Below, piece after piece: positions 3,800 through 39,246 of a stretch of 40,158 nucleotides of DNA. A program made the position numbers and the translations under genes. The number at the start of each line of letters is the position of its first letter. The stretch's first letter is position 1. The stretch is from Patescibacteria group bacterium. GTDB lineage: Bacteria > Patescibacteriota > Minisyncoccia > Moranbacterales > GWC2-37-73. The stretch is taken from NCBI GenBank assembly GCA_036391995.1, contig DASVYU010000021.1, positions 1 to 40,158 on the forward strand. The letters run 5' to 3'. The notes beneath the pieces were generated by a model. That model was not told where the DNA came from. It saw only the letters and a program-made list of their open reading frames with translations, and searched no databases.

Positions 3800-4675
3800 A
3801 TGCGAATGCGTAAAATTATTTTGTTTGTTGTGATATTTATAATAATGACTGTGGGCGCAGACAAGTCTAGTGCGTATTATTACGGTTCGCAAGGTTATAG
3901 TTCTACATGGTATCCGGGCGGAATAGGTAGTGGTCTGGATTCTCCTCAGTACACACATTCTTACGGTAGTTCATATTGGAATGCGGCCAATGATCCTACC
4001 TGTGTTTATCATTACTGTTCAAACCCTGGAGAAGATGAACAATACAAAAATGATCAGATCAAATATTATACTGAAAAAGTTACCACTTTTTGTTCTGTCA
4101 CCGGGGATCAGAAAAAATGTGACAAATATTGTGCAAGTTTGAAATCTTATAGTGGCAAAAGTGCGCTTTGTGGAGATGTCATCAAAAAAACATCTCCTGA
4201 CAAAAATGTTGATGCGAACAATGTTTCAACTGAAAAACAGGACAGTGAATCAAAAAAATCGGAAGATGCAAAAAAAGCAGAAGAGGCGAGAAATGCAGAG
4301 ATTGCGCAAAAAGAAAATGATGCGAAAACGGAAGTGCAAAACATGACACAGGAAGGTTCTGATTCAAATGTTCAAGTCACAGATGCGATAAATTCTTTAA
4401 ATAGAACTGGTGCTATTAGAAAGTTTTTTCTGGGCGTTGATATGTCTAAAATTGATAAATTGAAGGAAAGTTTTAGAAAAAACAAAGAAATAATACAACA
4501 GTTAGAATCTGTTTCACAACAAGAAGTTGCAAGTAATAATAGTGAAATAATGAATTCCGTTCAGCAGCAAATTGACGAGCTCAATAAAAGAAATATTTTG
4601 ATAGAAAATGCAATAAATGATAATGAGCTAAAAGTGGGCTTTATTTATTGGTTGAAAGGAATTTTTAGGAAATAA
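3800..4675 (+). CDS. Secreted hypothetical protein: signal peptide, an 8-Cys N-domain, a K/E-rich linker and a coiled-coil C-terminus
   Basis: MRMRKIILFVVIFIIMTVGA signal peptide, then a Cys-rich region (CVYHYCSNPG...FCSVTGDQKKCDKYCASL...ALCGD), then charged, coiled-coil sequence. No recognisable family. Confidence 0.5.
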   Translation: MRMRKIILFVVIFIIMTVGADKSSAYYYGSQGYSSTWYPGGIGSGLDSPQYTHSYGSSYWNAANDPTCVYHYCSNPGEDEQYKNDQIKYYTEKVTTFCSVTGDQKKCDKYCASLKSYSGKSALCGDVIKKTSPDKNVDANNVSTEKQDSESKKSEDAKKAEEARNAEIAQKENDAKTEVQNMTQEGSDSNVQVTDAINSLNRTGAIRKFFLGVDMSKIDKLKESFRKNKEIIQQLESVSQQEVASNNSEIMNSVQQQIDELNKRNILIENAINDNELKVGFIYWLKGIFRK

Positions 4676-6672: not shown

Positions 6673-6702
6673 AAAACCGCTTATTGCAGAGCGGTTTTGT
6701 GT
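6673..6702 (+). terminator. Rho-independent terminator, potentially bidirectional
   Basis: AAAACCGC-ttattgcaga-GCGGTTTT hairpin immediately after the 5612 gene and before the convergent RAYT gene. Confidence 0.5.
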
Positions 6703-7262
6703 TATATGAAGATATTTTCAATGTTGTTTCTGTCACGTTCCCACATTTTGGGATTTGTCTGGATGTATTCGCGGATTTTATTTAACGATTCATCATTACG
6801 GATAATGTGGTCGTAGAAACGTGGTTGCCAGGAGAAATATGTATTGTGCATGGTAGCAAATTTTTTAACGCCCACCTTGAATCCTCTAATAACGGACGCC
6901 AGATTTTCTGATTGTGGTCCAAATTTATTACCATTCACGTGTAGAGACGCAAAATTTTGCGTCTCTACATTTAAATGATTGATGCCATTCCAATTAATTT
7001 TTATAATTCCATGCATGTGGTTTGGCATGATGACAAATTCATCCAAATTTATAAATGGAAAATGGTTTGGAATTTTTTTCCAATATTCTTCTGCAATCTT
7101 TCCAATTTCCGATAGAATAATTTTTCCATCAACAATATCACCGAAAAAATGTTCGCGATCACGCGTACAAATTGTGATGAAATACATTCCATCTTGTGAA
7201 TAATTATATCCTGCCAATCTTGAAGATTTTATTGCGTATTTGTTTTTGAATTTATCATGCAT
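6702..7262 (-). mobile_element. REP-associated tyrosine transposase (RAYT), IS200/IS605-type Y1 HUH transposase
   Basis: HUH motif (MPNHMHGII) and a catalytic Tyr region (WQPRFYDHIIRNDESLNKIREYIQTNP). The N-terminus is typical of RAYTs (RLAGYNYSQDGMYFITICTRDR). The likely start is the ATG at 7262; the ORF tool extended it to 7301. Flanked by REP-like palindromes. Confidence 0.75.
6941..6970. repeat. REP-like 30-bp perfect palindrome, copy A, lying in-frame inside the RAYT CDS
   Basis: tgtagagacgcaaaattttgcgtctctaca, preceded by attcacgtg. It encodes NVETQNFASLHV within the transposase. Confidence 0.8.
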
Positions 7263-7304
7263 AAAAAATAATAAAATCAAAATATATACATATTTTAACA
7301 CAAA

Positions 7305-7330
7305 TAAAATCGGGTTTAAACCCGATTTTA
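7305..7330. repeat. 26-bp perfect palindrome between the RAYT start and efp
   Basis: taaaatcgggtttaaacccgatttta; a hairpin-forming element upstream of the RAYT start. Confidence 0.7.
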
Positions 7331-7336
7331 TTGAAA

Positions 7337-7378
7337 TTCACGTGTGACAGGTAGAGACGCAAAATTTTGCGTCTCTAC
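7337..7378. repeat. REP-like palindrome, copy B, with the same attcacgtg leader
   Basis: attcacgtgtgacag-gtagagacgcaaaattttgcgtctctac. It lies 6 bp from the efp stop codon and could double as the efp terminator hairpin. Confidence 0.8.
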
Positions 7379-7383
7379 AATTA

Positions 7384-7941
7384 TCAGGCGCGGGAAACGT
7401 ACTCTCCTTTTTCCGTGTTGATGATTAACTTGTCTCCTTCGTTGATGAAAAGAGGGGCGCTGACCTTGAGTCCGGTTTCCATGGTCACAACTTTGCCGCC
7501 TGTACCAGCAGTGTCGCCCTTGATTCCTGGAGGAGCTTCCACGACTGTCAGAGTAACTTTGATCGGCAGTTCGATGTTTACTGGATTGCCATTGAAGTTT
7601 AGTACAGTTACTTCGGTGCCTTCCAGAAGATAAAGATAGGCGTCGCCAATCACATCTTTGCTGAAAGTGAACTGCTCATAAGAGCTCATGTCCATGAAGA
7701 CATAACCCTCTGGTTCGTTGTAGAGATATTGAGCTTTGGTTTTGCTCATATCGGCCTCATCTACTTTTTCTGACCCCTGGAAAGTCTTGTCCAACACAGC
7801 TCCAGTCAGCAGGTTTTTGAGCTTGGTACGCAGCACTGCGCCTGCGCGTCCGGTCTTGGAATGCTCATGAGTGAGGACAACATAAGGCTGTCCTTCCCAG
7901 AGAATATTCTTGCCGGATTTGATATCGCTAAGTCCTAGCAT
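7384..7941 (-). CDS. efp: Elongation factor P
   Basis: A full EF-P three-domain sequence (KTGRAGAVLRTKLKNLLTGAVLDKTF...). Confidence 0.9.
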   Translation of the reverse strand: MLGLSDIKSGKNILWEGQPYVVLTHEHSKTGRAGAVLRTKLKNLLTGAVLDKTFQGSEKVDEADMSKTKAQYLYNEPEGYVFMDMSSYEQFTFSKDVIGDAYLYLLEGTEVTVLNFNGNPVNIELPIKVTLTVVEAPPGIKGDTAGTGGKVVTMETGLKVSAPLFINEGDKLIINTEKGEYVSRA

Positions 7942-8042
7942 AGTACTTTTATGTTATGCTAATCCACGAATTTAACACTAATCTGCGAATTACGAATTCG
8001 CAATTAGTGGATTGGCATTTATTTGCGGATTAGTATCTTTGC
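7942..8042. promoter_or_regulatory. Paralogous dyad-symmetric intergenic element E1, upstream of efp
   Basis: Shares a core with 8250-8370 and 8854-8971: atgctaatcNacgaatNNaacactaatctNcgaatt ... aattcgcaNttNgNggattggcatttattNgNggattag. It ends 10-25 nt before the start codon and carries no SD. Confidence 0.6.
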
Positions 8043-8249
8043 TTATTTAACTACAAAAGGTACCAAAGCCATCACGCGAGCGCGCTTGATAGCTTGGGAA
8101 AGCGTTCTTTGGTGCTTCGTGCAGATGCCATGGCGCTTTGGAGGATAGATTTTTCCTTGGCTGTTCATGAAGCGGCGGATGAGGTAAGCATCCTTGTAGT
8201 CGATTTTGTCCATCTTCTGATCACAGAAGTAACAAGTCTTTTTTTCCAT
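8043..8249 (-). CDS. rpsR: 30S ribosomal protein S18
   Basis: The translation (MEKKTCYFCDQKMDKIDYKDAYLIRRFMNSQGKIYPPKRHGICTKHQRTLSQAIKRARVMALVPF) is a full-length S18. Confidence 0.9.
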   Translation of the reverse strand: MEKKTCYFCDQKMDKIDYKDAYLIRRFMNSQGKIYPPKRHGICTKHQRTLSQAIKRARVMALVPFVVK

Positions 8250-8370
8250 AATTCAATGTGATGCTAATCAACGAATGGAACACTAATCTACGAATTGCGA
8301 ATGGATTTCAACAGAATTTATTCGCGATTTGTGGATTGGCATTTATTTGTGGATTCGCATCGTTTATTAT
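8250..8370. promoter_or_regulatory. Paralogous intergenic element E2, upstream of rpsR
   Basis: Same architecture as E1 and E3: two direct ctaatcNacgaat half-sites plus an inverted pair ggattgg/ggattcgca. Confidence 0.6.
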
Positions 8371-8853
8371 TTAAAACGGTACATCCTCGATTCTTACTTC
8401 GTCGGATTCCTCATCCAGATTGATGGTCGGAATCTCTTCTGCTGCTGGAGCTGCAGGTTTGCTAGCAGGCGCTGGAGTCGAGGCTTGTGGGGCAAGGCGA
8501 TTGTAGCTTCCGCTTCCCGCGCCGCTTGGGCGGCTTCCCATTTGCATATTCTCGGCAATTATTTCCGTAGTCCTTCTTTCCACTCCATCTTTGCCAGTGT
8601 AGGCACGTGTCTCTAGGCGTCCTTCGAAATAAGCCTCCTGACCTTTAGTGAGGTATTGGCCGGCTATTTCAGCTAGGCGTCCCCAGATTACGATGTTGTG
8701 GAACTCAGTCTTTTCCTGCTTCTGACCGCTCTTGTCCATCCAGGTGCGTCCGGTGGCTAAACCGACGGTCGCTACCGTCTGTCCTGAAGGAGTGGTGCGG
8801 AGTTCGACGTCACGCGTGAGGCGTCCGATGAGTTGGACTTTGTTCAAATTCAT
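8371..8853 (-). CDS. ssb: Single-stranded DNA-binding protein
   Basis: OB-fold N-domain (MNLNKVQLIGRLTRDVELRTTPSGQTVATVGLATGRTW), a Gly/Pro/Ala-rich linker and an acidic tail ending DEESDEVRIEDVPF. Confidence 0.9.
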   Translation of the reverse strand: MNLNKVQLIGRLTRDVELRTTPSGQTVATVGLATGRTWMDKSGQKQEKTEFHNIVIWGRLAEIAGQYLTKGQEAYFEGRLETRAYTGKDGVERRTTEIIAENMQMGSRPSGAGSGSYNRLAPQASTPAPASKPAAPAAEEIPTINLDEESDEVRIEDVPF

Positions 8854-8971
8854 AGAATTTGTGTGATGCTAATCTACGAATGCAACACTAATCTACGAAT
8901 TGCGAATGGATTCAAGTTTGTTTTATTCGCAATTTGCGGATTGGCATTTATTGGCGGATTAGCATATTTAA
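8854..8971. promoter_or_regulatory. Paralogous intergenic element E3, upstream of ssb
   Basis: gatgctaatctacgaatgcaacactaatctacgaattgcgaatgg ... attcgcaatttgcggattggcatttattggcggattagcata. Confidence 0.6.
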
Positions 8972-9577
8972 TTAGATGTTGAGCAATTCGTCCAGCTGCT
9001 TGTCGATGTCCTTGGACTCGGCTTCTTTCTTGCTCTTTTTTGGAGCTTCTTTCACCTCTTCAACTTTGGTTTCCTCGACTTTTTCTTCTTTGACTTCTTC
9101 CTTAATTTCAGCTATAGGCTTAACTTCCTCTTTGACTGCTTCCTTGGCTTCTGGCTTTGGGGCAGCTTTCTTTTCTGGGCGCTGAGCTTTGACTGGAGCT
9201 TGCTTGGCATTTCCGAGCTCTTGCTCTTTGCGGCGCTGCTTGGCTCCGAGATCTGGCAGATCTTCAGTCTTCACGATCAGGAAGCGGAGCACATCATTGT
9301 TGAGGTTCAGTTTGTTGGTGATGGCTTGGATGCCGAATTCTTTCTCAGCATTCTTTTCGTCAGCCCAATATTCGACCTCAGGAAGTTCGAAACGGCGGGT
9401 GATGTAGGTTCCGCGATTCTGGTGCTTGATTTCATAGGCAAGCTTCCTTTTTTCAACAATCTCTTCTTCGAGTATTGTTGCTCCTTCTTGAGTGAGCATG
9501 GCGCTCACGCTATTGCGGATCGCGTCGAGATTGGCCTCTTGGCGTTCTCCGACGAGATAGAACAGTTCGTACTGCAT
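8972..9577 (-). CDS. rpsF: 30S ribosomal protein S6 with a long K/E/A-rich C-terminal extension
   Basis: The S6 core begins at MQYELFYLVGERQ (ATG at 9577; the ORF tool start at 9592 adds MYNKI). A low-complexity KEEVKEE tail of about 90 aa follows. Confidence 0.85.
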   Translation of the reverse strand: MQYELFYLVGERQEANLDAIRNSVSAMLTQEGATILEEEIVEKRKLAYEIKHQNRGTYITRRFELPEVEYWADEKNAEKEFGIQAITNKLNLNNDVLRFLIVKTEDLPDLGAKQRRKEQELGNAKQAPVKAQRPEKKAAPKPEAKEAVKEEVKPIAEIKEEVKEEKVEETKVEEVKEAPKKSKKEAESKDIDKQLDELLNI

Positions 9578-9598
9578 AATTTTATTATACATTATTTA

Positions 9599-9660
9599 TT
9601 AACGGGTTAACGGGTTAACGCGTTAGGGATTCCAACTCGTGAACTCGTGAACTCGTGAAC
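9599..9660. promoter_or_regulatory. Upstream module, left copy: 3x CCGTTAAC-type tandem octamers and 3x CTCGTGAA tandem octamers; reads toward rpsF
   Basis: ttaacgggttaacgggttaacgcgtta ... aactcgtgaactcgtgaactcgtgaa. The reverse complement is present at 16120-16182. The distance from the GTTAAC repeats to the rpsF ATG is 21 nt. Confidence 0.6.
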
Positions 9661-9735
9661 TGTTGAATAAATAAACCCTCCAATAAAGAAAGCCGCGCCT
9701 TTTGGAGGATTCTTCCGACTTATCCTTTTGTTAAG

Positions 9736-9758
9736 CCCCGAAGGGGTCCCTTCGGGAC
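9736..9758. other. Two adjacent tetraloop-type hairpins in an untranslated region
   Basis: ccccgaagggg followed by gtcccttcgggac, a C(UUCG)G-type loop, between divergent rpsF and the island promoter. Confidence 0.3.
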
Positions 9759-9822
9759 AAAAAAGGCGAGTCAGAATCGGACTTTCTAAATTGTTTAAAT
9801 AGTATACACTATTGACATAATT

Positions 9823-9857
9823 TGTCAAATATGCTAGATTACACAGTTCACATTTTT
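9823..9857 (+). promoter_or_regulatory. Candidate promoter with an overlapping palindromic operator, for the flotillin island
   Basis: TTGACAtaattTGTCAA (an inverted repeat over the -35), a 17-nt spacer, then TAGATT. Further inverted repeats downstream: gagtatttttt/aaaaaatactc and ctggaa-N6-ttccag. Confidence 0.4.
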
Positions 9858-10019
9858 GATCTTTAGAGTATTTTTTGTAGTGCGAAAAAATATAAAAAAT
9901 ACTCTGGAAGTCAATTTCCAGGCTAGCAATCTTTACAACTGAATTAATGAAATGAAAGGAGGGAAAAGGATTTGAGATTGTAAAATCCAAGAGAGGACTG
10001 AGTGGAAGTTAAACATCAA

Positions 10020-13833: not shown

Positions 13834-13987
13834 TGGACAATTCGGTTGTAGAGTTGTAATATATATAACTAAGTCTAAGTTTTAAATTTTAAGTTTGAAA
13901 TGAGTTTTAAATGACTAAATGTTTTAAAACTTAGGCATTTAGGATTGAATTAAAATTTAAAAATTAGCCCTTAAAACTTGTGTAGTC

Positions 13988-15946
13988 ATGGATTTTGAGA
14001 TTTCTAGCAAATATAAGCCTGCCGGCGATCAGCCGCAGGCCATTGAATTGCTCACATACGGGCTGGAACATCAGCAGAAGTTTCAGACGCTTTTGGGTGT
14101 GACTGGATCGGGCAAGACTTTCACGATTGCCAATGTGATCGAGAATGTGCAGAAGCCCACTTTGGTGATCGCGCCCAACAAGACTTTGGCAGCGCAGCTG
14201 GTGCAAGAATTTCGCACCTTCTTTCCCAAGAACGCTGTGGAATATTTCGTGTCCTATTACGACTATTATCAGCCGGAAGCCTACATCGCTTCGACTGATA
14301 CATATATCGAAAAGGAAGTACAGATCAATGATGAGATCGACAGATTGCGTCATGCTGCAACCTCCGCTTTGCTTTCCAGGCGCGATGTGATCATCGTTGC
14401 ATCGGTTTCCTGCATCTACGGCTTGGGAAGCCCGGACTATTATCGTGAAGGGACTGTTTCGGTTGTTGTCGGAGAAAAAGCTTCACGCGAAGCGATCATG
14501 AAAGGCATGATAGATATGCAATATCATCGCAGTGAGGTTCTGGAGCGCGGCAAGTTCCGCGTGATCGGCGACACGATCGAAGTGATCACGCCTGGCAGAG
14601 AGATCGTGTCACGCATCGAATTGGAAGATGGCTTGGTCAAAAGAATCCAAGAATATGATTTCCTGACGGGCGAAAAACTGGGAGATCTCAAGCAGACGCT
14701 TATTTATCCAGCCAAACATTTTGTGGTGCCAGAACCTGTCATGCAGGCAGCACTGGAAGAGATTGAACAGGAAGCCAAGGAAAGAGTGGAATATTTCAAA
14801 GCCAAAGGCAAGCTTCTGGAAGCGGAGAGGATTTCTCGCAGAACCAAACAGGATCTGGAGATGATGCGCGAGATCGGCTATTGCAATGGCGTGGAGAATT
14901 ATTCGCGCTATCTGACAGGCCGTAATGAAGGCGAGCCGCCATACACTTTGGTGGATTATTTCCCGGAAGATTTTCTTTTGGTGATCGATGAATCGCACGT
15001 GACCATCCCGCAGCTTAGTGCCATGTATAACGGGGATCGTGCCAGAAAAGAAGCGCTGATCGAAAACGGCTTCCGTCTGCCGAGCGCTTTTGACAATCGC
15101 CCGCTCAAATTTCCGGAATTCGAATCGCACATCAACCAGCTCATTTTCACTTCGGCTACTCCTGGAGCATATGAGAAGCAGAATTCTTCCCAGATGGTGG
15201 AACAGATCATCCGCCCGACGGGGCTCATCGACCCGGAGCTCATCATCAGGCCAGCCAAGGGGCAGGTCAAAGATGTGCTGCCTGAAATAGAGAAGGTCAT
15301 CGAGAAAAAGGAACGCGTCTTGATCACGACGCTCACTAAGAAGATGGCGGAGGATCTGGCGGAATTCTTGAAGGAACATGGCATCAAATGCGAGTATCTG
15401 CATTCCAGTGTGGACACTCTGGATCGCATCAGGATATTGGAAGGCCTCAGGCGAGGGGATTTCGACGTGCTGGTGGGAGTCAATCTTCTGCGCGAAGGCT
15501 TGGATCTGCCGGAAGTTTCCCTGGTAGCCATTCTGGATGCGGACAAGGAAGGATTCTTGCGCAGCGAGACTTCGCTCATCCAGACCATAGGCCGCGCCGC
15601 GCGTAACGTGAACGGCAGAGTGCTTCTCTATGCTGACAACATGACCGGCTCCATGCAGAGGGCGATCGATGAGACCAATCGCCGCCGGGAGAAGCAGCTG
15701 GCCTACAACAAGAAGCACGGCATCACCCCTAAGACTATCCAGAAGAACATCAAATCCATCGTGGATCACGAGATCAACCCCCAGGTACCGACTGATTTTT
15801 CACAAGTGGAATCCCTAGAGGACATTGCTGGCTACATCAAACAGAAAGAGAAAGAGATGAAAGACGCGGCCCGTGCCCTGGAGTTCGAGAAAGCGGCTCT
15901 TATCCGCGATGAGATTTCCCAGCTCAGGAAATTGCAAATAAAATAG
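13988..15946 (+). CDS. uvrB: Excinuclease ABC subunit B
   Basis: Helicase motifs (GVTGSGKTF; DESH), a beta-hairpin region and a C-terminal UVR domain ([18 protein letters not shown]). Confidence 0.95.
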
Positions 15947-16051: not shown

Positions 16052-16119
16052 TTGCGTACATTTATAATGCCTAGTAAAATACAAGAGACTCAAGGTCTCC
16101 TTTGTAGTTGGTTGAAAAG

Positions 16120-16182
16120 TTCACGAGTTCACGAGTTAGCGGGTTTATTTATCCAACGCGTTAACCCGTTAACCCGTTAACT
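16120..16182. promoter_or_regulatory. Upstream module, right copy: 2x TTCACGAG and 3x GTTAACCC-type octamers; reads toward the DsbA-like gene
   Basis: ttcacgagttcacgag ... aacgcgttaacccgttaacccgttaac is the reverse complement of 9599-9660. It sits 18 nt before ATG 16201, the same geometry as at rpsF. Confidence 0.6.
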
Positions 16183-16200
16183 GAATAATAAATATTCAAT

Positions 16201-18029: not shown

Positions 18030-20948
18030 ATGGAAGACAAGATAATAATCCGCGGGGCAAGGGAACATAATTTGAAGAACATAAACCTTGATCTGCCGCG
18101 AGACAAATTCATAGTGTTTACGGGACTTTCAGGGTCGGGAAAATCGACCCTGGCTTTTGATACGATTTTCGCTGAAGGACAGAGGAGATATTTGGAAAGC
18201 CTTTCAAGCTACGCGCGCCAATTCTTGGGGCAGATGGACAAGCCGGATGTGGATCATATCGAAGGGCTTTCGCCGGCTATCTCCATCGACCAGAAATCTA
18301 CCACGCACAACCCGCGCTCGACCGTGGGAACTGTGACGGAAATCCATGATTATCTGCGTCTGCTCTATGCCAAAATCGGCGTTCCGCATTGTCCGGTCTG
18401 CGGACGTGAGATTTCTAAACTATCCACTGATGAAATCGTGGATCGCATTTTGGAGCTGTCTGAAAAACATTCGCAGACAATTGAGATCCTTGCTCCGGTC
18501 GTGCGCGAAAGGAAAGGTGAATATCTGGCGCTTTTGGATGACATGTGGAAAAGAGGATTTTCCGAGGCGACAGTGGATGGCAAACGCATGCAGCTGGAAG
18601 ATTTCAAGGATATGAAACTTGAACGTTACAAGAAACACAGCATCGACATTGTGGTAGACAAATTGACTGTCAGTGAAGATAGCATCACGCGCATATTCGA
18701 AGGCGTGGAAAGATCGCTTCGCATGGCGGAAGGATTGGTGAAAATAAGATGCATCTCCAATGAAGCTAAAAGCCAAAAGCTAGAAGCTAAAAGCCATTCG
18801 AAGTGTTTTGCGGAGCAGATTTTCAATCAGAAACTTTCCTGTCCGATCCATGACATCCAATTTCCGGAATTGGAGCCGCGTCTTTTCTCTTTCAATTCTC
18901 CCTATGGCGCCTGTGAAGCTTGCGAAGGATTGGGACTCAAGAAGGAGATCGATCCGCATCTGATCATGCCTGACATAAACAAGACGATCGCGGAGGGAGG
19001 TTTTGCTCCTTGGAATTTCAAGAAAAACAACTATTATGGCGGCGTGATACTGTCAGCCGCACGCTTTTTCAATGTGCCCGACAATGTGCGCTTGCGTGAT
19101 CTGCCCAAGAAGAAGCTCAATCTAATGCTCTACGGAACCACCGAAGAAGGCATGGAGGCGACAGAGGAAGATGCTGAGGAGATTCCGATCACCATAAGGG
19201 CCAAGACTGGTACTAATTGGAAATTCTACATGGAATGGCACGGCGTGCTTGGTTTCATGCGAGACAGGTATTTTAAGACCGAGTCAGACACAGTGCGTGC
19301 GAACATGGAGAAATATATGTCGCAGAAGCCTTGCAGTGTCTGCAAAGGCTCACGTTATAAGCGCGATGTGCTTTTGGTGACGGTGGGAGAAAAAAACATC
19401 CATGAAGTCTCCACTTTGAGCGTGTCTGATTCCAAGCAATTCTTCGAAGATTTGAAACTGACCAAAAGAGAAACCATGATTGCGGGCAGGATCCTCAAGG
19501 AAATAAACGCGCGCCTGACATTCTTGAACAATGTGGGCTTGGATTATCTCACGCTGCATCGCGCGGCTTATTCTCTTTCAGGTGGTGAAGCACAGCGCAT
19601 CCGTTTGGCTTCGCAGATCGGCTCGCAATTGGTGGGAGTCTTGTATATCCTGGATGAACCATCGATCGGACTGCATGCGCGTGACAACACCAAGCTCATA
19701 GAGACTCTTAGGCAATTGCAGGAAATAGGCAACACTCTGATCGTGATCGAGCATGATGAAGAAATGATGCGGCATGCAGATTGGTTGGTGGACATCGGAC
19801 CAGGCGCCGGCAAGCATGGCGGCGAAATCATTGCACAAGGCAAACCTGAAGATGTTATCGCAAGCAAGAAATCCCTGACGGGCAAATACCTGCGAGGCGA
19901 ATTGGAAATCGAAATTCCCAAGATGCGCCGCGCAGTCAATAAGAAAAAATTCATCACGGTGAGAAATGCCAGTGAGCATAATCTCAAGAATGTGACAGCG
20001 GAATTTCCGCTTAGAGTTTTCACTTGCGTGACAGGTGTTTCCGGCTCGGGAAAATCGACTTTAGTGGAAGACACTTTGTATAAAGCTTTGGCCAACAAAC
20101 TGCACCGCGCTTTGGATGTGCCTGGCAGGCATCAGGAAATCGTGGGTATCGAGAACATCAACAAAGTCATCATGATCGACCAGTCGCCGATCGGACGCAC
20201 GCCGCGCTCGAATCCTGCGACATATACGGGACTTTTCACGCATATCCGCGAACTGTTCGCGCAGACAAAAGATGCCAAACTCCGAGGCTATGGTCCAGGC
20301 AGGTTCTCATTTAACATTGCCGGCGGGCGCTGTGACAACTGTTCCGGAGAAGGATTCTTGAAAATAGAGATGCAATTCATGCCAGACGTCTATCTGCCTT
20401 GTGATGTCTGCTCAGGTAAGAGATATAACAGTGAGACATTGCAAGTGAAATATAAAGGCAAGAATATTTCCGAAGTTCTTGGCATGACTGTTTCGGAAGG
20501 CGCGGAATTCTTCGCAGCTTTTCCTAAGATCGCTGAACCATTGAAAGTTTTGGAAGATGTAGGATTGGGCTATATCGAGCTAGGGCAGAGCGCAACGACT
20601 CTCTCTGGAGGAGAAGCGCAGAGAATCAAGTTGGCAGCGGAACTTTCGCGCCGTGCGACGGGTGACACGCTGTACATTCTGGACGAGCCAACCACGGGCT
20701 TGCATTTCGATGACATTAAAAAACTTTTGGGAGTATTGAATCGTTTGGTGGATGCTGGCAACACAGTGGTTGTCATTGAGCATAATATGGATGTCATCAA
20801 GACTGCAGACTGGATCATAGACATGGGACCGGAAGGTGGAGATGGCGGAGGACGCATCGTGGTAACAGGCTCGCCGGAAGAAGTCATCAAATATCACAAG
20901 GAAAGCTACACGGCGAAATATCTGAGAGAAGTGCTCAAGAAAAAATAG
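18030..20948 (+). CDS. uvrA: Excinuclease ABC subunit A, full-length class I type
   Basis: Two ABC modules ([10 protein letters not shown]; [12 protein letters not shown]), signature LSGGEAQR twice, zinc-finger and insertion domains. Contains an in-frame tandem-repeat insert at 18762-18800. Confidence 0.95.
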
Positions 20949-21856: not shown

Positions 21857-21940
21857 AATCCAATCCTCCTTTGCCTTTTTAAGGCAATCAGTTGTAATAT
21901 TCAGTTGGATAGGTACGACATTATATTATACTCCTTTTTT

Positions 21941-23329
21941 ATGAATTTGTCCAGTATAAAGCAAAAAATAGCTCAGTTGCCTCAGAATCCGGGGGTATAT
22001 TTTTTCTGCGACTCGGCAGGGGCAATCCTCTATATAGGCAAGGCGACGAATTTGAGAAGCCGGGTTTCTTCCTATTTCCGTGGTTTTGGTGCGGGGGAGT
22101 TGAGCTCCCAAATGCAAAAAGGGAGCTCAACTCCCTTTGTGGCTGGAAGAAGTGAGTGGATTGGTTTAATGGTTTCGCAAATTGCAAATATTGATTTTCA
22201 AGAAACAGACAGCGTCTTGGAAGCGCTCATTCTGGAAAGCAACCTGATAAAGAAGCATCAGCCCAAATACAACACGCTGGAAAAGGACGACAAGAGCTTT
22301 GCGTATTTTGTGATTACCAAAGAGGATTTTCCACGCATCTTGATTCTTCGAAAAACTGATATTGATTTTGAAAATCTAGAAGCTAAAAGCTATAAGCTAA
22401 AAGCTATCTTCGGCCCATACACAAGCAAATACCAGATGGAAACGGCGCTCAAAATCATGCGCCGGATCTTTCCGTTCCATGCGCTCAAGCAGAAAACAGA
22501 AAAAGGCTGTTTGGATTTCCAGTTGGGCATGTGTCCTGGTCCATATGAAGGCGCGATCTCCAAAGAGGATTACAAAAAGAATATCCGCGGCATCCGGATG
22601 ATCCTGGAAGGCAAGAAAAAAAGATTAGTGACGACATTGGAAAAAGAGATGCAGATCCTTGCCAAAAAAAACGAATTCGAAAAAGCTGCCGAGATTCGCA
22701 ACAAAATATTCGCACTCAATCATATTATGGATATTGCGCTTATGACTAGAGATTTTGATAATTTAGAATTTCCAATTTCGAATTTCGAATCAAATCAGAA
22801 TGACATAATTTCGAAAAATAAATCATTAGAAATTCATTCAAAATTCAAAATTCAAAATTCAAAATTGTTCAGGATTGAGGCATATGATATTTCAAATATT
22901 TCTGGACAAAATGCAGTGGGCTCAATGGCGGTTTTTGAAAATGGAAAACCTGCTAAATCACAATATCGCAAATTCAAGATAAAAACGATTGAAGGCAGCG
23001 ATGATGTGGGCAGCATGCGAGAGGTCTTGTCACGGCGCTTCCACAATGATTGGCCGATGCCTGATCTTATTCTGCTCGATGGTGGGCAAGGGCATTTGAA
23101 TATGGCAACAAAACTGTTATTGGAAGAAATGGGCTTGGCTTTGAATATCGCAGCTGTTGCCAAAGGTCCCACCCGCAAGAAGTTGGATGTGCGAATCGCT
23201 GGATCTGTGCCACCTTCAGTCAAGTATATTCTGGCGGATCAGAATCTTTTGAAGTCCATCATGGATGAAGCGCATCGTTTCGCGATCACATTCCATCGCA
23301 AGCTCCGCCGCAAAAACGCTTTGCAATGA
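21941..23329 (+). CDS. uvrC: Excinuclease ABC subunit C, compact form lacking the C-terminal HhH domain
   Basis: GIY-YIG (GVYFFCDSAGAILYIGKATNLRSRVSSYF ... EALILESNLIKKHQPKYN), a UVR domain (EFEKAAEIRNKIF) and an RNaseH-like endonuclease domain (RIEAYDISN...). Likely start at ATG 21941. Carries three in-frame inserts (22095-22135, 22372-22404, about 22760-22870). Confidence 0.85.
   Translation: MNLSSIKQKIAQLPQNPGVYFFCDSAGAILYIGKATNLRSRVSSYFRGFGAGELSSQMQKGSSTPFVAGRSEWIGLMVSQIANIDFQETDSVLEALILESNLIKKHQPKYNTLEKDDKSFAYFVITKEDFPRILILRKTDIDFENLEAKSYKLKAIFGPYTSKYQMETALKIMRRIFPFHALKQKTEKGCLDFQLGMCPGPYEGAISKEDYKKNIRGIRMILEGKKKRLVTTLEKEMQILAKKNEFEKAAEIRNKIFALNHIMDIALMTRDFDNLEFPISNFESNQNDIISKNKSLEIHSKFKIQNSKLFRIEAYDISNISGQNAVGSMAVFENGKPAKSQYRKFKIKTIEGSDDVGSMREVLSRRFHNDWPMPDLILLDGGQGHLNMATKLLLEEMGLALNIAAVAKGPTRKKLDVRIAGSVPPSVKYILADQNLLKSIMDEAHRFAITFHRKLRRKNALQ
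22095..22135. repeat. Perfect 15-bp-arm palindrome inserted in-frame in the uvrC GIY-YIG region
   Basis: GGGAGTTGAGCTCCC-aaatgcaaaaa-GGGAGCTCAACTCCC. It encodes extra residues (GELSSQMQKGSSTPF) between SYFRG and the conserved MVSQIANIDF. Confidence 0.8.
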
Positions 23330-29017: not shown

Positions 29018-29147
29018 TTCTTGTTCCTGAAAGATCAAGAAGTATGACGCAAATAGCAGCTCCCGCTGATTTGGAGGGTGCTGCTTTTGTGTTATAATGA
29101 AACAACGAATCGCAGTTTTTTATTTGCGGGATTGAAGTTGTCCTTCC

Positions 29148-32100
29148 ATGATCAAATTCAAAAAAAATAAAAACAAAAGAATAAGGTTTATTTTAGAACG
29201 AAAGCGAAATCTGACCGCTTTTGTGTTGGCATTTGCTTTTCTGTTTGCTTTGGGCGCTCATTTTCAGTTGATTTCCAGAATTTTCGCTTCCTCGGCAAGC
29301 TCTGTTACAAAAACGACAGACGTGGACTTTTCGCAGGGCGTTTTTTCTTCCACTGGAGTAAATGGGACCGGGGTTGGTGCAAATGTCCAGTTTTCTGGCA
29401 GCAGTTATCAAGATGCAATATTGGCTACCCCAACTGTTGTCTCTTATTGGAAAATGGATAATGATTGGACTGATAGCAAAGGTAGCAATAATGGAACGCC
29501 TGTTGGCGCAGGTTTCACTTCTCCGCTCATAGGGACTGGAGCCGGTAACTTCAATGGCAGTTCCAAAGTGAGCTTTGCAAACAGTGCCAGTATTAATTTT
29601 ACGGATGATTTTTCGGTTGAATTCGTAATAAAACCAGTTTCTGTGTCGGGAACTACTTCTGTATTGGACAAGGGTGATGGCGCCTCTGTTGCAGGTACGA
29701 GATACTCTGTTCTCATAGAGAACGGGAAAGTTCGATTTATTACGGAAACAGGTTCTACCCAAAACGACTTATATTCCACTCAGACCATTTCTGTTGGCCA
29801 GCAATATCACGTAGTTACCAGGAGAAAGGCTGGCGTTATGGAAATATTCATCAATGGTGTGAGCAGTGGAACGTTGAATGCTCCAGGAGTTTTAAATACG
29901 GAAAATAATCCTTTGGTGGTAGGAGTTTATCCTAATGGCAGCATGTATTATAACGGCGTGCTTGATGAGCTTGCCATGTATAGTTCAGCACTGGATAATG
30001 CCACAATAGCTGCACACGCCAGCTCAGCTAGTCAAGGCGGCGCGCCGATTTCTGGCACTTGGGAATCAGCAACCAATTCCAATGCCATTGAAACACTTGG
30101 CAATGTGGGTTGGGATAACACTGCTGCTCTTACAGCAGATCTGTCGAGCATGTCTGCGTCTGCAACAATCCAGTTTTCTGTGCGCACAGCTGACACAGCT
30201 GCAGGCTTGTCTAGTGCGGCATATTCGAATATCGGCAGTCCTGTCACAACAAACGGTACAACCACGTTTACTGCCAGTAATTTAGGCGCTGTTACTCCGC
30301 GCAGGTTTGTCCAAATCAAAGCGGTCTTTGCGCGTCCAAACGGCGTGACGGTATCGCCTCAACTCAATTCATTCACAATAAACTACAAGAAAGATGTCGT
30401 AGCTCCGGAAGTCAATCTTTCAAGCTTATCCATGAAGCGTACAAATGGGGGGGAGGCGGTGGTTTCCAATGGGTGGACTAATCAGAAATCACCGTATTTT
30501 TCTTGGAACAATGCAGTGGATTCCGAATCTGGTGTGAGAGGCTATTGCATGTATCTCGGAACAGATCCAGCTGGAAATCCGCTTTTATCTTCCGGTATGC
30601 TTTTGAACTCTCCTGTAGATGTGGCAATACTTAAAAAATCCGATGGTTCCCCCCAGTGCCAATTCGCTGTAAATGCGCAGCCTGGTGCAACTTCATCTTT
30701 TGATTTCGGATCAGGAATATATGGGACGAATGGTTTGGCGACATCCACAAACCCTTATTATCTGAATATCGTAGCTATTGATAATGGCAATAATGTAAAC
30801 ACCTCCTTGGTGCAATTCCAGTTTCGTTTTGATAACACTGCTCCTACTAATCCGGCCTACATAACTTTGCCTGGATATTATGTCTCTGATAAGAGCGCTT
30901 CCTTTACATGGCCAACAGGTGGGAACTCTGATTCGGCAAGCGATAATATTTCCGGTCTCAAGGGGTTTCAATACAAAATAGGCGATAACGGAACATGGTA
31001 TGGAAGTTTACATACTGGAAGTCAAGATGCAAGTGATCTTTTGAATCCTGCCGGAGGCATCTATACATTCCAGAATATTCCTGATTTTGCCAATATAAAC
31101 ATCGGATCTAACTATATTTATTTGAGGACTTGGGATAATGCCGGCAATGTCAGTACGCAATATGCTTCGAGTGTTCTTAAATATGATCCAAATCCGTTGT
31201 CTGCACCGCAGAACGTTTCGGCAACGCCATCTGATTCGCAGAGTAACTCCTATAGTTTTTCTTGGCAAGCCCCGGCTCAACTGTCTGGGGAGCATGATTT
31301 TGAACTCAGTTATTGTTATACGGTCAACGTGTTGCCTTCAGCTCAGACATGCTCGTTTACAACTGCAGGCGTGACTTCACTTTCAGCAGATGCTTTCGCT
31401 ACGCAGCCGGGAAAAAATACTTTTTATGTCACCGCAAAAACAAGCGGTGGCAAAATAAATTATGATAACTATGCCTCAGTTGATTTCACATATTCAGGAT
31501 CAGCTCCTGGTGTTCCACGTAATCCGGATATTTCGGATATTTCCATTAAAACCACTGCCAATTGGAAATTGGCTCTCACTTGGGATGAACCAAGTGATAA
31601 AGGCGCGGGCATAAACACATATAAGATTTTCCGCAGTGAGAATAATGTGCCTTGTCTTGGCAATTCCAGTGCTTATTCGGAAGTTGGTTCAACTTCTGGA
31701 ACTTCCTATGTTGATTCGGGATTGTCCCAAAAGAATTATTATTATTGCATACGGGCTTGCGACAGTGCCAATAGCTGCGGAGCCTCTTCTGCAACGGTTA
31801 CGAAATATCCGACAGGCAAATTCACTTCACCGGCTAACATTGTTTCGGGTCCTGATGTTACGGGTGTATCTACTCGCAAAGCCTCCATTTTTTGGTCTAC
31901 CGACAGAAGCAGTGATTCCAAGATTTCCTATGGTACGAAATCGGGAGAATATTATCATGAAGAGCCTTCTGTGGCGGATCAAACGACGGATCATGCCATT
32001 TCGCTTTCCAATCTTGATCCTGATACTGCTTATTATTATCGCGCCAAATGGACTGATGAAGATGGCAACACTGGATCTTCTGAAGAAAAGGCTTTCAAGA

Positions 32101-35644: not shown

Positions 35645-38479
35645 ATGCCTCTCAAAAAAGCTGCTTCCAAAAACGACAACGAGATCGTGATAAAAGGTGC
35701 CAGGGTGAATAATCTAAAAAACATCGACGTCAATGTGCCGCGTGACAAATTCGTGGTAATCACAGGCCTTTCAGGGTCGGGAAAATCTTCTTTGGCTTTC
35801 GACACCATTTATGCCGAAGGCAATCGACGCTACATGGAAGGACTTTCCTCGTATGCGCGCAATTTTTTGGATCCTTCCGTGAAGCCGGATGTGGATAAGA
35901 TTGAAAATCTTTCGCCTCCGATCTCCATTGATCAGAAAAGCATCTCACGCTCCCCGCGTTCAACAGTGGGCACGCTGACGGAAGTGTATGACTATCTTCG
36001 CATTCTATATGCCAAGGTGGGAGTGTTGCATTGTCCGAATTGCGGTGCATCCATGCAAAGAAGAAGCAACAAAGAAATTTTGGATGATATTCTGGCTTTG
36101 CCGCATCATACTCAGATTGCAATCCTTGCTAAACCGAAAGAGAACCTGGTTGGAAAGGATCTTTTGAAACATATCCAGCAATTGGGTTATGCACGGGTGC
36201 GTATGGGCGGGCCTGCCTCGACTCGCGAAGACGCATCGTCGACGCGAGGCGGGAAGATGCTGACTGTGGCTGAAGCTTTGATGTTTGAAGAGCAGGAGAT
36301 GAGCCAAGACATCGACATGGTAATCGATCGTGTGATTTTGGATATCAAAAATCCGGACACTGAACGCATGGTGGACTCAATTGAAACAGCTATGAAAGTC
36401 GGTGGCGGCGCCATGAAGATGCTGATCGACAATAGTGAAGAGAGATCGTATAATCAGGACTTCTTCTGTTCTAATTGCGGCGTGAAAATCAAGGAAGTTA
36501 CTCCGCGCCACTTTTCTTTCAATAGTCCCGAAGGAGCGTGCGACAATTGCTCTGGTTTGGGATATACCTTGAAAGTCAACGAAGAGCTTGTGATTCCAAA
36601 CAAGAACCTGTCGCTTCTGGAAGGCGCGATCCAGCCTTGGAGCAAATCCGGAGGCAAGATCAATGGGCAAAGCAGCCAGATCCAGATGCTCAAGGATATT
36701 GCTAAGAAATATAAATTTTCCGTCAGCGTGCCTGTGAAAAAACTTACCAAGCAGCAATTGGACATAGTACTGGATGGCAAGGATGGTTTTGAAGGTGTTA
36801 TTCCTGCTTTGGAAGAAAAATATGCCCAGACCAAATCGGAATATATGCGCACGGAAATCGAGAAATATATGACTGCACATGTGTGCGGCAGCTGCATGGG
36901 CAAACGTCTCAAGAAAGAATTCTTGGCTGTCGAGATCCAGGGCCAAGGCATTGATGATCTGGTAAATATGGGAGTGACCAAGCTCAAGGAATTTTTCGAG
37001 GGCGCTGAAAATTGGCAACAGACTTTACAGGAAAAAGAAATTACGCGGCCAATCGTGCGCGAGATGCTCAGTCGTCTCAGAGCTTTGGAAAACGTGGGCT
37101 TGGAATATCTGAATCTGGGACGTTCTGCTCAGACCATTTCCGGCGGAGAAGCGCAGCGCATCCGTTTGGCTGCCCAATTGAATTCTCAACTCATGGGCAT
37201 CGTGTATGTTTTGGATGAACCGTCTATTGGTTTGCATAATCGCGACACGGAAAAACTCATCAAGACCATGCAATCTTTGCAAGGGGTTGGTAATTCCTTG
37301 GTGGTGGTTGAGCATGATGAAGCTATCATTAAATCGGCAGATTGGATCATCGATATGGGACCCGGTGCAGGTGAGGAAGGCGGCATTGTGGTTTTTGAAG
37401 GAGACTACAAGAAGCTGCTCAAATCCAAGAATCTTACTGCGCAATATATTTCCAGAAAAAAGAAAGTTTCCGACAAAAAATCCTATCGCAAAGGCTCTGG
37501 CCAACATATCGAGATCATCGGCGCAGAGGAACACAATCTTAAGAATGTGGATGTGTCCATTCCGCTGGAAAAATTCGTAGCAATCTGCGGCGTGTCAGGC
37601 TCAGGCAAGTCCACGCTTGTCAAAGACATTCTCTCCAAAGCGCTTTCGCGTCATTTCTATGGCACCAAGGATCTGCCTGGTAAGCACAAGAAGATCAAAG
37701 GTTTTGAACATGTCAAAAAAGTCATTTCCATCAATCAGAATCCGATCGGACGCACGCCGCGCTCCAATGCGGCAACCTACACTGGAGTGTTCTCATATAT
37801 CCGTGATCTTTTTGCGCAGACGGAAGAATCCAAGAATCGTGGCTATACTGCCAGCCGTTTCAGTTTCAATATGAAAGGCGGACGCTGCGAGGTTTGTCAG
37901 GGAGAAGGCTACAAGAAGATCGAGATGCATCTTTTGCCTGACATGTATGTTAAATGTGAAGCATGTGACGGAACGCGTTTTTCCAAGAAGACTTTGGAGA
38001 TTGAATACAAGGGTTACAATATAGCGCAGGTCCTGGATATGGATGTGCGGTTCGCTCTCAGATTCTTTGCGCGCCATCCTTTGATTGCGGAAAAACTCAA
38101 GACCATGGAAGATGTGGGATTGGGATATTTGAAACTGGGGCAAAGCGCAACAAATCTTTCAGGTGGTGAGGCTCAGCGCATCAAGCTGGCCACGGAACTG
38201 GCTAGAAAATCTACAGGCAACACCTTGTATATCTTGGATGAACCGACAGCTGGTCTGCATTTCGATGACATACGCAGATTATTGGTTGTACTCAATGCTT
38301 TGGTAGACAAAGGCAATACGGTTTTGGTGGTGGAGCATAACCTGGATGTTGTGCGTGACGCTGATTGGGTGATTGAGTTGGGACCGGATGGCGGAGACAA
38401 AGGCGGCTATGTCAATTTCGAAGGTACACCGGAAAAGCTCAAGAAGGATAAGGAAAGTTGGACAGCGAAGTATCTGTAG
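35645..38479 (+). CDS. uvrA: Second full-length UvrA paralog
   Basis: [10 protein letters not shown] / [19 protein letters not shown] twice, and the zinc-finger and UvrB-binding-region-length insertions all present (944 aa). It lacks the repeat insert seen in the first uvrA. Confidence 0.9.
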   Translation: MPLKKAASKNDNEIVIKGARVNNLKNIDVNVPRDKFVVITGLSGSGKSSLAFDTIYAEGNRRYMEGLSSYARNFLDPSVKPDVDKIENLSPPISIDQKSISRSPRSTVGTLTEVYDYLRILYAKVGVLHCPNCGASMQRRSNKEILDDILALPHHTQIAILAKPKENLVGKDLLKHIQQLGYARVRMGGPASTREDASSTRGGKMLTVAEALMFEEQEMSQDIDMVIDRVILDIKNPDTERMVDSIETAMKVGGGAMKMLIDNSEERSYNQDFFCSNCGVKIKEVTPRHFSFNSPEGACDNCSGLGYTLKVNEELVIPNKNLSLLEGAIQPWSKSGGKINGQSSQIQMLKDIAKKYKFSVSVPVKKLTKQQLDIVLDGKDGFEGVIPALEEKYAQTKSEYMRTEIEKYMTAHVCGSCMGKRLKKEFLAVEIQGQGIDDLVNMGVTKLKEFFEGAENWQQTLQEKEITRPIVREMLSRLRALENVGLEYLNLGRSAQTISGGEAQRIRLAAQLNSQLMGIVYVLDEPSIGLHNRDTEKLIKTMQSLQGVGNSLVVVEHDEAIIKSADWIIDMGPGAGEEGGIVVFEGDYKKLLKSKNLTAQYISRKKKVSDKKSYRKGSGQHIEIIGAEEHNLKNVDVSIPLEKFVAICGVSGSGKSTLVKDILSKALSRHFYGTKDLPGKHKKIKGFEHVKKVISINQNPIGRTPRSNAATYTGVFSYIRDLFAQTEESKNRGYTASRFSFNMKGGRCEVCQGEGYKKIEMHLLPDMYVKCEACDGTRFSKKTLEIEYKGYNIAQVLDMDVRFALRFFARHPLIAEKLKTMEDVGLGYLKLGQSATNLSGGEAQRIKLATELARKSTGNTLYILDEPTAGLHFDDIRRLLVVLNALVDKGNTVLVVEHNLDVVRDADWVIELGPDGGDKGGYVNFEGTPEKLKKDKESWTAKYL

Positions 38480-39107: not shown

Positions 39108-39246
39108 AGGGATTAAATTTTCAATTTATAATTTTTAATTTTCAAACAATGTTCAATTTTTCAATGATTCAAATTTCAAACATTTAGAAGTTTGGTCATT
39201 GGAAATTGTTTAGAAATTGAAAATTGAAAATTAGAAATTCATTTTT
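39108..39246. repeat. AT-rich heptamer-repeat divergent intergenic region of the (GAAAATT)n / (AATTTTC)n family
   Basis: The left half is rich in aattttcaa units and the right half in gaaattg/gaaaatt units, making an imperfect large dyad between the divergent YdjM-like gene and rsmI. Similar tagaaatt repeats lie at 35581-35644. Confidence 0.6.

Follow-up and report, generated by a model that had tools for sequence, protein, structure and literature searches.

Imperfect palindromes between the genes of a patescibacterial rpsF-ssb-rpsR-efp operon as probable copies of a dispersed repeat family

Why does every gap between the genes of one ribosomal-protein operon hold a variant of the same palindrome of roughly 100 nucleotides (nt)? 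The question is raised by a 40,158-nt stretch of DNA (hereafter the window; GenBank assembly GCA_036391995.1, contig DASVYU010000021.1, positions 1 to 40,158) from a Patescibacteria group bacterium, a member of the candidate phyla radiation (CPR); by its SSB homologues the window falls in or near Candidatus Moranbacteria. A preliminary description of the window had proposed that the elements of the rpsF-ssb-rpsR-efp cluster are multi-site operators, ribosomal-protein autoregulatory leader RNAs, or a domesticated miniature inverted-repeat transposable element (MITE) that now supplies a translation-initiation context. Our analysis favours another form of the last answer: the three elements are probably, though by no means certainly, copies of a non-autonomous interspersed palindromic repeat that is widespread in CPR/Patescibacteria, that resembles repetitive extragenic palindromic (REP) doublets (REPINs), MITEs, and Rickettsia palindromic elements (RPEs), and that would have a generic effect on the mRNA.

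Three palindromes in the gaps of the operon

The four genes, assigned from open reading frames (ORFs) and Pfam matches, lie on the minus strand in the order rpsF (8972-9577, with the ORF listed to 9592; ribosomal protein S6 with a long Lys/Glu-rich C-terminal tail), ssb (8371-8853), rpsR (8043-8249; ribosomal protein S18), and efp (7384-7941), separated by intercistronic gaps of 118 nt (8854-8971), 121 nt (8250-8370), and 101 nt (7942-8042). Each gap contains one imperfect palindrome of 85-106 nt, confirming the three paralogous dyad elements of the preliminary description: copy 3 in the rpsF-ssb gap (8862-8965, minus strand; family hidden Markov model [HMM] E=6.7e-24), copy 2 in the ssb-rpsR gap (8257-8362, minus strand; E=2.3e-22), and copy 1, the shortest, with a 3-nt apical loop, in the rpsR-efp gap (7952-8036, minus strand; E=1.4e-20). 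In all three gaps 6-8 nt separate the upstream stop codon from the beginning of the palindrome, and 7-14 nt separate its end from the ATG, fewer than the 10-25 nt originally given; the residual spacers lack a GGAGG-like Shine-Dalgarno sequence, as had been claimed. The half-site layout described earlier holds insofar as two exact CTAATCNRCGAAT sites are followed by two degenerate inverted sites, but the strand on which it was read is antisense to the genes.

The arms of the three copies are 78-96% identical, copies 2 and 3 being the closest pair (their left arms are 96% identical). Exact CTAATCNRCGAAT matches occur six times in the window, all inside the three gaps, and with up to two mismatches the motif occurs 19 times, compared with 7.0 ± 2.6 expected, a number reached by none of 100 shuffles. 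A search of the window with the family profile using nhmmer returned no fourth copy. Two independent Logan assemblies (L073 and L074) carry identical copies, so the elements are not an assembly artefact. Besides the window, two short Logan contigs are the only sequences in which the SSB protein was found, and sequencing runs SRR10159350 and SRR10159353 contain this genome. A small hairpin at 29090-29125, CGAATCGCAG...TTTGCGGGATTG, which the family HMM does not match, looks like a single unit pair of the family. It occupies the leader of the gene for a 1305-residue protein at 29148 and is preceded by a TGTTATAAT extended -10-like box.

Each copy is predicted to fold into a single long hairpin, with sense-strand energies of -24.4, -26.0, and -30.2 kcal/mol for the three copies and z-scores between -3.4 and -5.3. 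The sense-strand hairpins contain many A·C mismatches, and the predicted stem would be long enough for the roughly 20 bp of double-stranded RNA of an RNase III site. We rejected an intrinsic terminator, because no GC-rich stem followed by a U-tract accompanies the elements; the sense-strand 3' flank reads CACA(N)5-10ATG without a T-run. The sole sense-strand match of the terminator scan within the elements is the apical stem of copy 1 (8003-7983), whose tail, ATTAGTGTTA, is not a clean T-run; ordinary intrinsic terminators are present elsewhere in the window.

A dispersed family across CPR genomes

We scanned one genome per species with a pattern of two direct 13-mers (22 specified bases) and recovered 72 loci, compared with about 0.4 chance matches by our own estimate. 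About 43 of these share the same arm or whole-hairpin layout, ATGCTAATCnnCGAAT-aaat-GCTAATCnnCGAAT-TGCGAAT, a loop, and then the inverse, and derive from metagenome-assembled genomes (MAGs) labelled Parcubacteria, Moranbacteria, Falkowbacteria, Sungiibacteriota, Roizmanbacteria, Buchananbacteria, and Patescibacteria group; some single genomes contributed several loci (10 from JAGLYP01, at least 5 from JACPBG01). A few scan loci are labelled Gammaproteobacteria or Bdellovibrionales, labels that are taken from the records and may belong to mis-binned CPR contigs. A stricter pattern gave 30 further metagenome loci and no copies in viral contigs and phage records, and a profile search of all fetched loci added full and half copies within the same 8 kb stretches. 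The remaining 29 or so of the 72 loci consist of tandem 8/16-nt arrays from Bacteroidota, Acidobacteriota, and other groups, which may be unrelated. A Bacteroidales MAG (L065, 3895-4655) has long tandem arrays of a 16-nt unit, (CTAATCCTCGAATCTG)n, as do L015, L018, L072, and L016; the L065 arrays flank a small ORF (4242-4619), inserted in an ars operon, that by eye resembles a four-helix-bundle/23S-IVS protein. The Bacteroidota 16-nt arrays share the 13-mer with the CPR element and may likewise be unrelated to it.

The genes that flank the CPR copies are mutually unrelated and include mreB/glycosyltransferase, scpA, 2-oxoacid oxidoreductase subunits, a response regulator, ligA, HIT-family genes, rtcB, and recA, together with the ribosomal-protein pairs rpsL-rpsG (two genomes), rpsH-rplF, and rpsE-rplO. 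The preliminary description had named dispersed copies with terminal repeats and target-site duplications (a plain MITE) as an outcome that would speak against its proposals, and dispersed copies are what we find, at unrelated genes in dozens of CPR genomes. We are confident, short of certainty, that the elements are a dispersed palindromic repeat and not a ribosomal-protein leader. The copies lie nearly always in tight gaps between co-directional genes, with the upstream stop codon 0-10 nt before the element; when oriented by the downstream gene, they end in ...GATTAGCAT(C/T)A(C/T)A, with the ATG 3-16 nt further on. Half-copies also occur in frame within the uvrC reading frames of two other MAGs, L019 (7493-7536) and L046 (1553-1603) (CTAATC/GC(T/G)AAT family), the L046 half-copy being translated as ...TRINANDANMRMVANGNAGE... 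within the GIY-YIG region.

Alignment of 28 copies gives the consensus nnATnATGCTAATCCGCGAATAAATGCTAATCTGCGAATTGCGAATAA...ATTCGCAATTCGCAGATTAGCATTnTATTCGCAGATTAGCATnATA, which is a symmetric palindrome, so that the family has no intrinsic orientation. Each arm consists of about five GC(T/G)AAT hexamers spaced 8, 10, 8, and 7 nt apart, readable as two CTAATCNNCGAAT 13-mers plus TGCGAAT, and a short variable loop separates the inverted arms; the longer copies have the termini (A)TGTGATGC...GCATCACA(T). Extra hexamer units per arm are found in L101-L103, and single arms occur alone. With an explicit 45-pair hairpin imposed on the 28 copies, 84.3% of the cells are paired, compared with at most 42% when the partner is slid by 1-3 columns. 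This pairing does not exceed that of column shuffles (84.1 ± 0.5%, with 180 of 500 shuffles reaching the observed value), and the covariation score is 0.108 compared with 0.103 in the shuffles. RNAalifold reports some both-sided changes at the NN spacers, and the K position of the hexamer is often mismatched between the arms. Since the explicit count lies within the shuffle range, we dropped covariation as proof of a selected RNA structure. By this measure, the palindrome belongs to the family consensus, and single copies degenerate with no clear sign of compensation.

The hexamer cores are invariant across phyla, and the orthologous rpsL-rpsG copies of L043 and L056 differ at about 6% of sites, compared with 35% at the four-fold sites of the flanking genes, which means that the element sequence is constrained or homogenised. 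Together, the invariant hexamers, the low divergence of the orthologous copies, and the decay of individual copies point to recognition by a conserved protein, homogenisation among copies, or both; such a putative hexamer-recognising protein would most plausibly be the mobilising enzyme.

Comparison with eight syntenic rpsF-ssb-rpsR-efp loci in Moranbacteria (SSB identity 78-85%) reveals how the same gaps are filled in relatives. They hold hairpins of about 60-165 nt built of short periodic repeats, and their content differs between genomes. The family HMM finds the GC(T/G)AAT element upstream of rpsF in L109 (E=7e-23), L112, and L106, at a second site in L106 in the ssb-rpsR gap, and in L108 in the rpsR-efp gap. 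Other gaps are occupied by the repeat families CAGAA/TTCTG, CACGGAT/ATCCGTG, TGTTATAT/ATATAACA, AATTTCCA/TTGAAAAT, or GTTAAC-based repeats, and some are empty (rpsR-efp in L105, 9 nt; ssb-rpsR in L109, 38 nt). Neighbouring gaps within one genome tend to share one family. The differing content indicates turnover, and together with this sharing it fits local spread within an operon that is itself conserved and essential.

Other hairpin families are present in the window as well. One, (AGTTCACG)x3 ... (AACCCGTT)x3, lies directly upstream of rpsF (9592-9674, minus strand) and is unrelated to the main family; a second copy (16118-16183, plus strand) is upstream of a thioredoxin-like gene (16201), with the same gene-relative orientation and a similar distance to the ATG, and an orthologous copy precedes rpsF in L111 (230-338; SSB identity 85%). 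Its stem carries a mismatch at every fourth position, and we regard these hairpins as belonging to the same phenomenon as the main elements, in a different family. AT-rich hairpins are found at 13875-13979 and 39113-39239, and uvrC (21905-23329, plus strand) contains an in-frame periodic-repeat insertion of about 110 nt at 22752-22872, in the linker that joins the UVR and endonuclease domains. This insertion is composed of 7-8-nt repeats (AATTTCG..., ATTCAAA x4.4), is translated as NLEFPISNFESNQNDIISKNKSLEIHSKFKIQNSKL, folds weakly (-18.5 kcal/mol; z-score, -1.9; 7 of 200 shuffles fold at least as well), and appears to belong to the same AT-rich family as the hairpin at 39113-39239.

Known element classes and rival explanations

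Among the three original proposals, the MITE-like one comes closest to the evidence. The whole element is an imperfect palindrome and in that sense possesses terminal inverted repeats, but no target-site duplication is demonstrated: the flanks of about 40 copies contain no consistent direct repeat. Inspection of about 110 element-bearing loci of up to 8 kb identified no transposase gene enclosed by inverted arms that could represent a parent insertion sequence (IS). The idea that the element supplies a translation-initiation context gains no clear support from its short, near-constant distance to the ATG, which is equally expected from insertion of a ~100-nt element into a gap of 10-20 nt, such as the 9-nt rpsR-efp gap of L105.

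The multi-copy extragenic inverted doublets and singlets are shared with REP/REPIN (BIME) elements, which are likewise short palindromes often found in operons, in which the inverted-arm doublet forms a larger hairpin, and which are known to be co-transcribed and to influence both how stable the mRNA is and how the gene upstream is translated. The CPR element departs from them in its size (about 100 nt compared with 20-40 nt per unit), in its GC(T/G)AAT arrays, in its TGTGATGC...GCATCACA termini without a GTAG/GTGG head, and in lacking any cognate RAYT that we could find. One RAYT-like Y1 transposase ORF (6702-7268, minus strand; weak Pfam Y1_Tnp match, HUH-like motif NHMHG) does lie 640 nt from copy 1. 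What borders this ORF, and also lies within it, is not the element but a perfect GTAG-type REP palindrome, GTAGAGACGCAAAATTTTGCGTCTCTAC, at 7351-7378 (between efp and the ORF) and 6941-6968 (inside the ORF, translated in frame as ...VETQNFASL...); a tblastn search with the ORF against the ~110 element-bearing loci returned only the self match. We rejected it as the mobiliser on both grounds, its own GTAG-REP and the missing homologues.

Correia/NEMIS elements of Neisseria, ERIC/IRU, RUP, and BOX-type MITEs share with the CPR element a length of 100-150 nt, long terminal inverted repeats, and a location in operon gaps near start codons, and they are known for transcribed hairpins cut by RNase III or RNase E and for possible promoter-like ends; the CPR element differs in its periodic hexamers and its hosts, and neither a TA or other target-site duplication nor a matching parent IS was found. 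RPEs are palindromes of about 100-150 nt in the reduced genomes of host-dependent bacteria, located between genes and also in frame within them, a parallel extended here by the half-copies in uvrC of L019 and L046 and by the hairpin of another family in uvrC of the window. However, the RPE sequences are unrelated and come from different phyla, and the CPR copies are mostly intercistronic. REP/REPIN, Correia-type MITEs, and RPEs are the closest known kinds. For a possible mode of action, the closest functional analogy is the intercistronic RNase III sites of phage T7, paralogous imperfect hairpins in successive gaps of a polycistronic transcript, shortly upstream of start codons, although the T7 sites are not dispersed repeats and the window copies carry many sense-strand A·C mismatches. 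Integron attC sites (e.g., Vibrio VCRs) are paralogous imperfect palindromes of about 60-140 nt between consecutive co-oriented genes; we rejected this class, as the R''/R' core sites (RYYYAAC/GTTRRRY) are not in the sequence, the genes are core housekeeping genes in synteny conserved in eight relatives, and no integrase was found among the window ORFs scanned. TIGR-Tas arrays consist of tandem 36-nt (or stem-loop) units with variable dual spacers, box C/D motifs, and a Nop-domain Tas gene (PMC12045711; bioRxiv 10.64898/2026.09.09.750476). In contrast, the elements are single hairpins whose arms are conserved rather than variable, and no Nop/Tas domain was found in the scanned window ORFs, so this candidate was also rejected. 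A promoter cassette, with TAGCAT as the -10 box 8-14 nt before the ATG, finds no clear support, given the lack of a convincing -35 box, the symmetry of the element, and the absence of the motif from the other families; the promoter scan gave only weak outward matches, on the plus strand.

The location of the elements in a ribosomal-protein operon, and of some other copies at the rpsL-rpsG, rpsH-rplF, and rpsE-rplO junctions, could suggest autoregulatory leaders, i.e., feedback sites for S6:S18 or a similar partner repeated before each cistron. We consider this proposal effectively refuted: the element also precedes ssb and efp, which do not encode ribosomal proteins, recurs at mreB, ligA, recA, rtcB, HIT, oxidoreductase, and other genes, and is replaced by unrelated sequence or by nothing in the orthologous gaps of relatives. 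Moreover, no ribosomal-protein leader was matched in Rfam searches of the whole window at the gathering threshold and of 7300-10000 at E<=5, which returned only spurious microRNA-precursor and Phe-leader-like weak matches. A multi-site operator would have the hexamers bound, as double-stranded DNA (or as RNA), by some conserved regulator or nucleoid protein of CPR bacteria that coordinates many operons, with the dyad symmetry reflecting a multimeric protein rather than a hairpin. This reading is in keeping with the invariant hexamer cores, with the K position and NN spacers that vary without significant co-variation between arms, with the variable hexamer number per arm (L101-L103), with the solitary arms, and with the conservation of the rpsL-rpsG copy beyond the four-fold sites. 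We nevertheless judge it unlikely, since no candidate protein was found, the 7-10 bp spacing is out of helical phase, copies occur inside ORFs and between functionally unrelated genes, and a conserved regulon would not be expected to have its sites replaced so rapidly by unrelated families in orthologous gaps.

The hairpins could instead constitute a selected intercistronic punctuation or translation module of interchangeable, fast-evolving periodic hairpins just upstream of start codons, in which an RNase III-type cut at the base of the hairpin, or the insulating effect of its structure, would provide near-leaderless or unstructured initiation in genomes poor in Shine-Dalgarno sequences. Unrelated hairpin families do end 7-20 nt before an ATG lacking such a sequence (13875-13979, 16118-16183, 39113-39239, and 9592-9674, and in relatives too), nearly every operon gap across the eight relatives holds some hairpin, and the AGTTCACG/AACCCGTT family keeps its orientation and ATG distance at two unrelated genes and an orthologue. 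Most window genes have an AT-rich upstream spacer without a Shine-Dalgarno sequence (e.g., 1690, 3800, 4695, 5612, and 33879), clear GGAG-type sites being limited to a few (10041, 12008, and 12660). Yet insertion into 10-20-nt gaps would also leave short distances on both sides, some gaps in relatives are empty, copies also lie within coding regions, the symmetric consensus defines no orientation, and compensatory evolution does not rise above the shuffle control, which makes the module improbable in our estimation. Its broadest form, a lineage-wide CPR system in which operons poor in Shine-Dalgarno sequences are punctuated by protein-recognised, processed hairpins giving near-leaderless or insulated starts, and of which the GC(T/G)AAT family would be the most conserved member, seems to us a little less probable again.

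Finally, the plus strand, antisense to the operon, folds much more strongly than the sense strand in all three copies (-29.9, -49.9, and -41.0 kcal/mol), which, together with weak outward promoter-like matches on the plus strand at 8012-8039 and 8941-8968, could suggest an antisense structured RNA, or a single-stranded DNA hairpin, acting from that strand. The better fold arises because most of the sense-strand mismatches are A·C, and each of these becomes a G·U pair when the opposite strand folds. Every hairpin-bearing gap of the window folds better on the plus strand, whether its genes are on the plus or the minus strand; the GC skew of the plus strand is positive throughout the window, and that of the rpsF sense strand is negative in all eight syntenic loci. 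Family copies from other genomes display no consistent strand asymmetry, and many, those of JAGLYP01 among them, are near-perfect palindromes. The simplest explanation for the G·U asymmetry would be a replication-strand mutation bias, in which C-to-T and A-to-G transitions, favoured on what is probably the leading strand, act on palindromes; such a bias would account for the pattern and removes the case for an antisense RNA, which we dropped as very improbable.

Proposed mode of action and significance

Under the favoured explanation, a non-autonomous interspersed palindromic repeat, an already diverged copy would have spread locally into the three tiny gaps of the operon. A strong sigma-70-like promoter (TTGACA-16-TATACT, 11/12; 9801-9828, minus strand), recognised as a consensus match only and located about 225 nt upstream of rpsF, is the probable promoter, and a perfect hairpin followed by a T-rich tail 3' of efp (7303-7332, minus strand), not flagged by the terminator scan, is the probable operon terminator. 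One polycistronic mRNA would run from the former through the elements to the latter, in which the elements would form imperfect intercistronic hairpins of -24 to -30 kcal/mol without a U-tract. Hairpins of the REP, Correia, ERIC, and T7 RNase III-site kinds act as exonuclease barriers or endonuclease targets, and when the distance to a stop codon is about 15 nt or less they can also influence the cistron upstream. By analogy, the hairpins of the operon may block RNases or be cut by them (RNase III, 3' exonucleases), leading to segmental mRNA processing and stability, and may decouple translation of adjacent cistrons; the effect is likely to be generic rather than gene-specific, and a specific effect on mRNA processing or stability is put forward only tentatively, as somewhat doubtful. 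Within the ~225-nt stretch between promoter and rpsF, a GC-rich structured segment (9680-9800, minus strand; ..GTCCCGAAGGGACCCCTTCGGGGC..) could be the actual regulatory leader of the operon; Rfam gave nothing above a chance-level match for it.

Several observations weigh against this explanation. Mobility is deduced from distribution only, as no transposase, target-site duplication, or clean pair of filled and empty sites was found, and the sole nearby transposase-like gene, the RAYT-like ORF at 6702-7268, has its own GTAG-REP and no homologue in the other loci. The tendency of the gaps of this operon to share one family within a genome, and the presence of some hairpin in nearly every gap of the relatives, could be explained by selection for an intercistronic hairpin or a common regulator site as well as by local spread. 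In addition, the A·C mismatches would make the window copies poorer RNase III substrates than the near-perfect copies of other genomes.

As to the other contents of the window, DNA-repair genes are abundant (uvrB, two uvrA paralogues, uvrC, and recA), and two SPFH/Band-7 genes and a copper P-type ATPase with HMA-domain partners are also present (coordinates for this gene content, 13988-15946, 18030-20948, 21905-23329, 35645-38479, and 1690-2706). Several genes have -10-like boxes 7-12 nt before the ATG, such as TGTATAAT 7 nt upstream of rpsF, which hint at leaderless or short-leader mRNAs. A tRNA/tmRNA scan of the window returned none.

Palindromic repeats of the interspersed kind have been studied in depth in Proteobacteria, Neisseria, pneumococci, and Rickettsia, and we found no description of such repeats in CPR/Patescibacteria in the searchable literature. 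CPR genomes are tiny and gene-dense, so that filling each gap with some 100 nt of apparently selfish DNA comes at a cost, and the conservation of the sequence across several CPR phyla implies a putative protein partner. In practical terms, the elements can mislead annotation, by producing false small ORFs, false regulatory RNAs, and odd protein insertions, and they may serve as strain markers. Their stop-to-start placement, their occasional in-frame copies, and their quick turnover in an essential operon bear on how CPR operons are expressed; should the punctuation module prove true after all, it would represent a lineage-wide alternative way to organise polycistronic expression.

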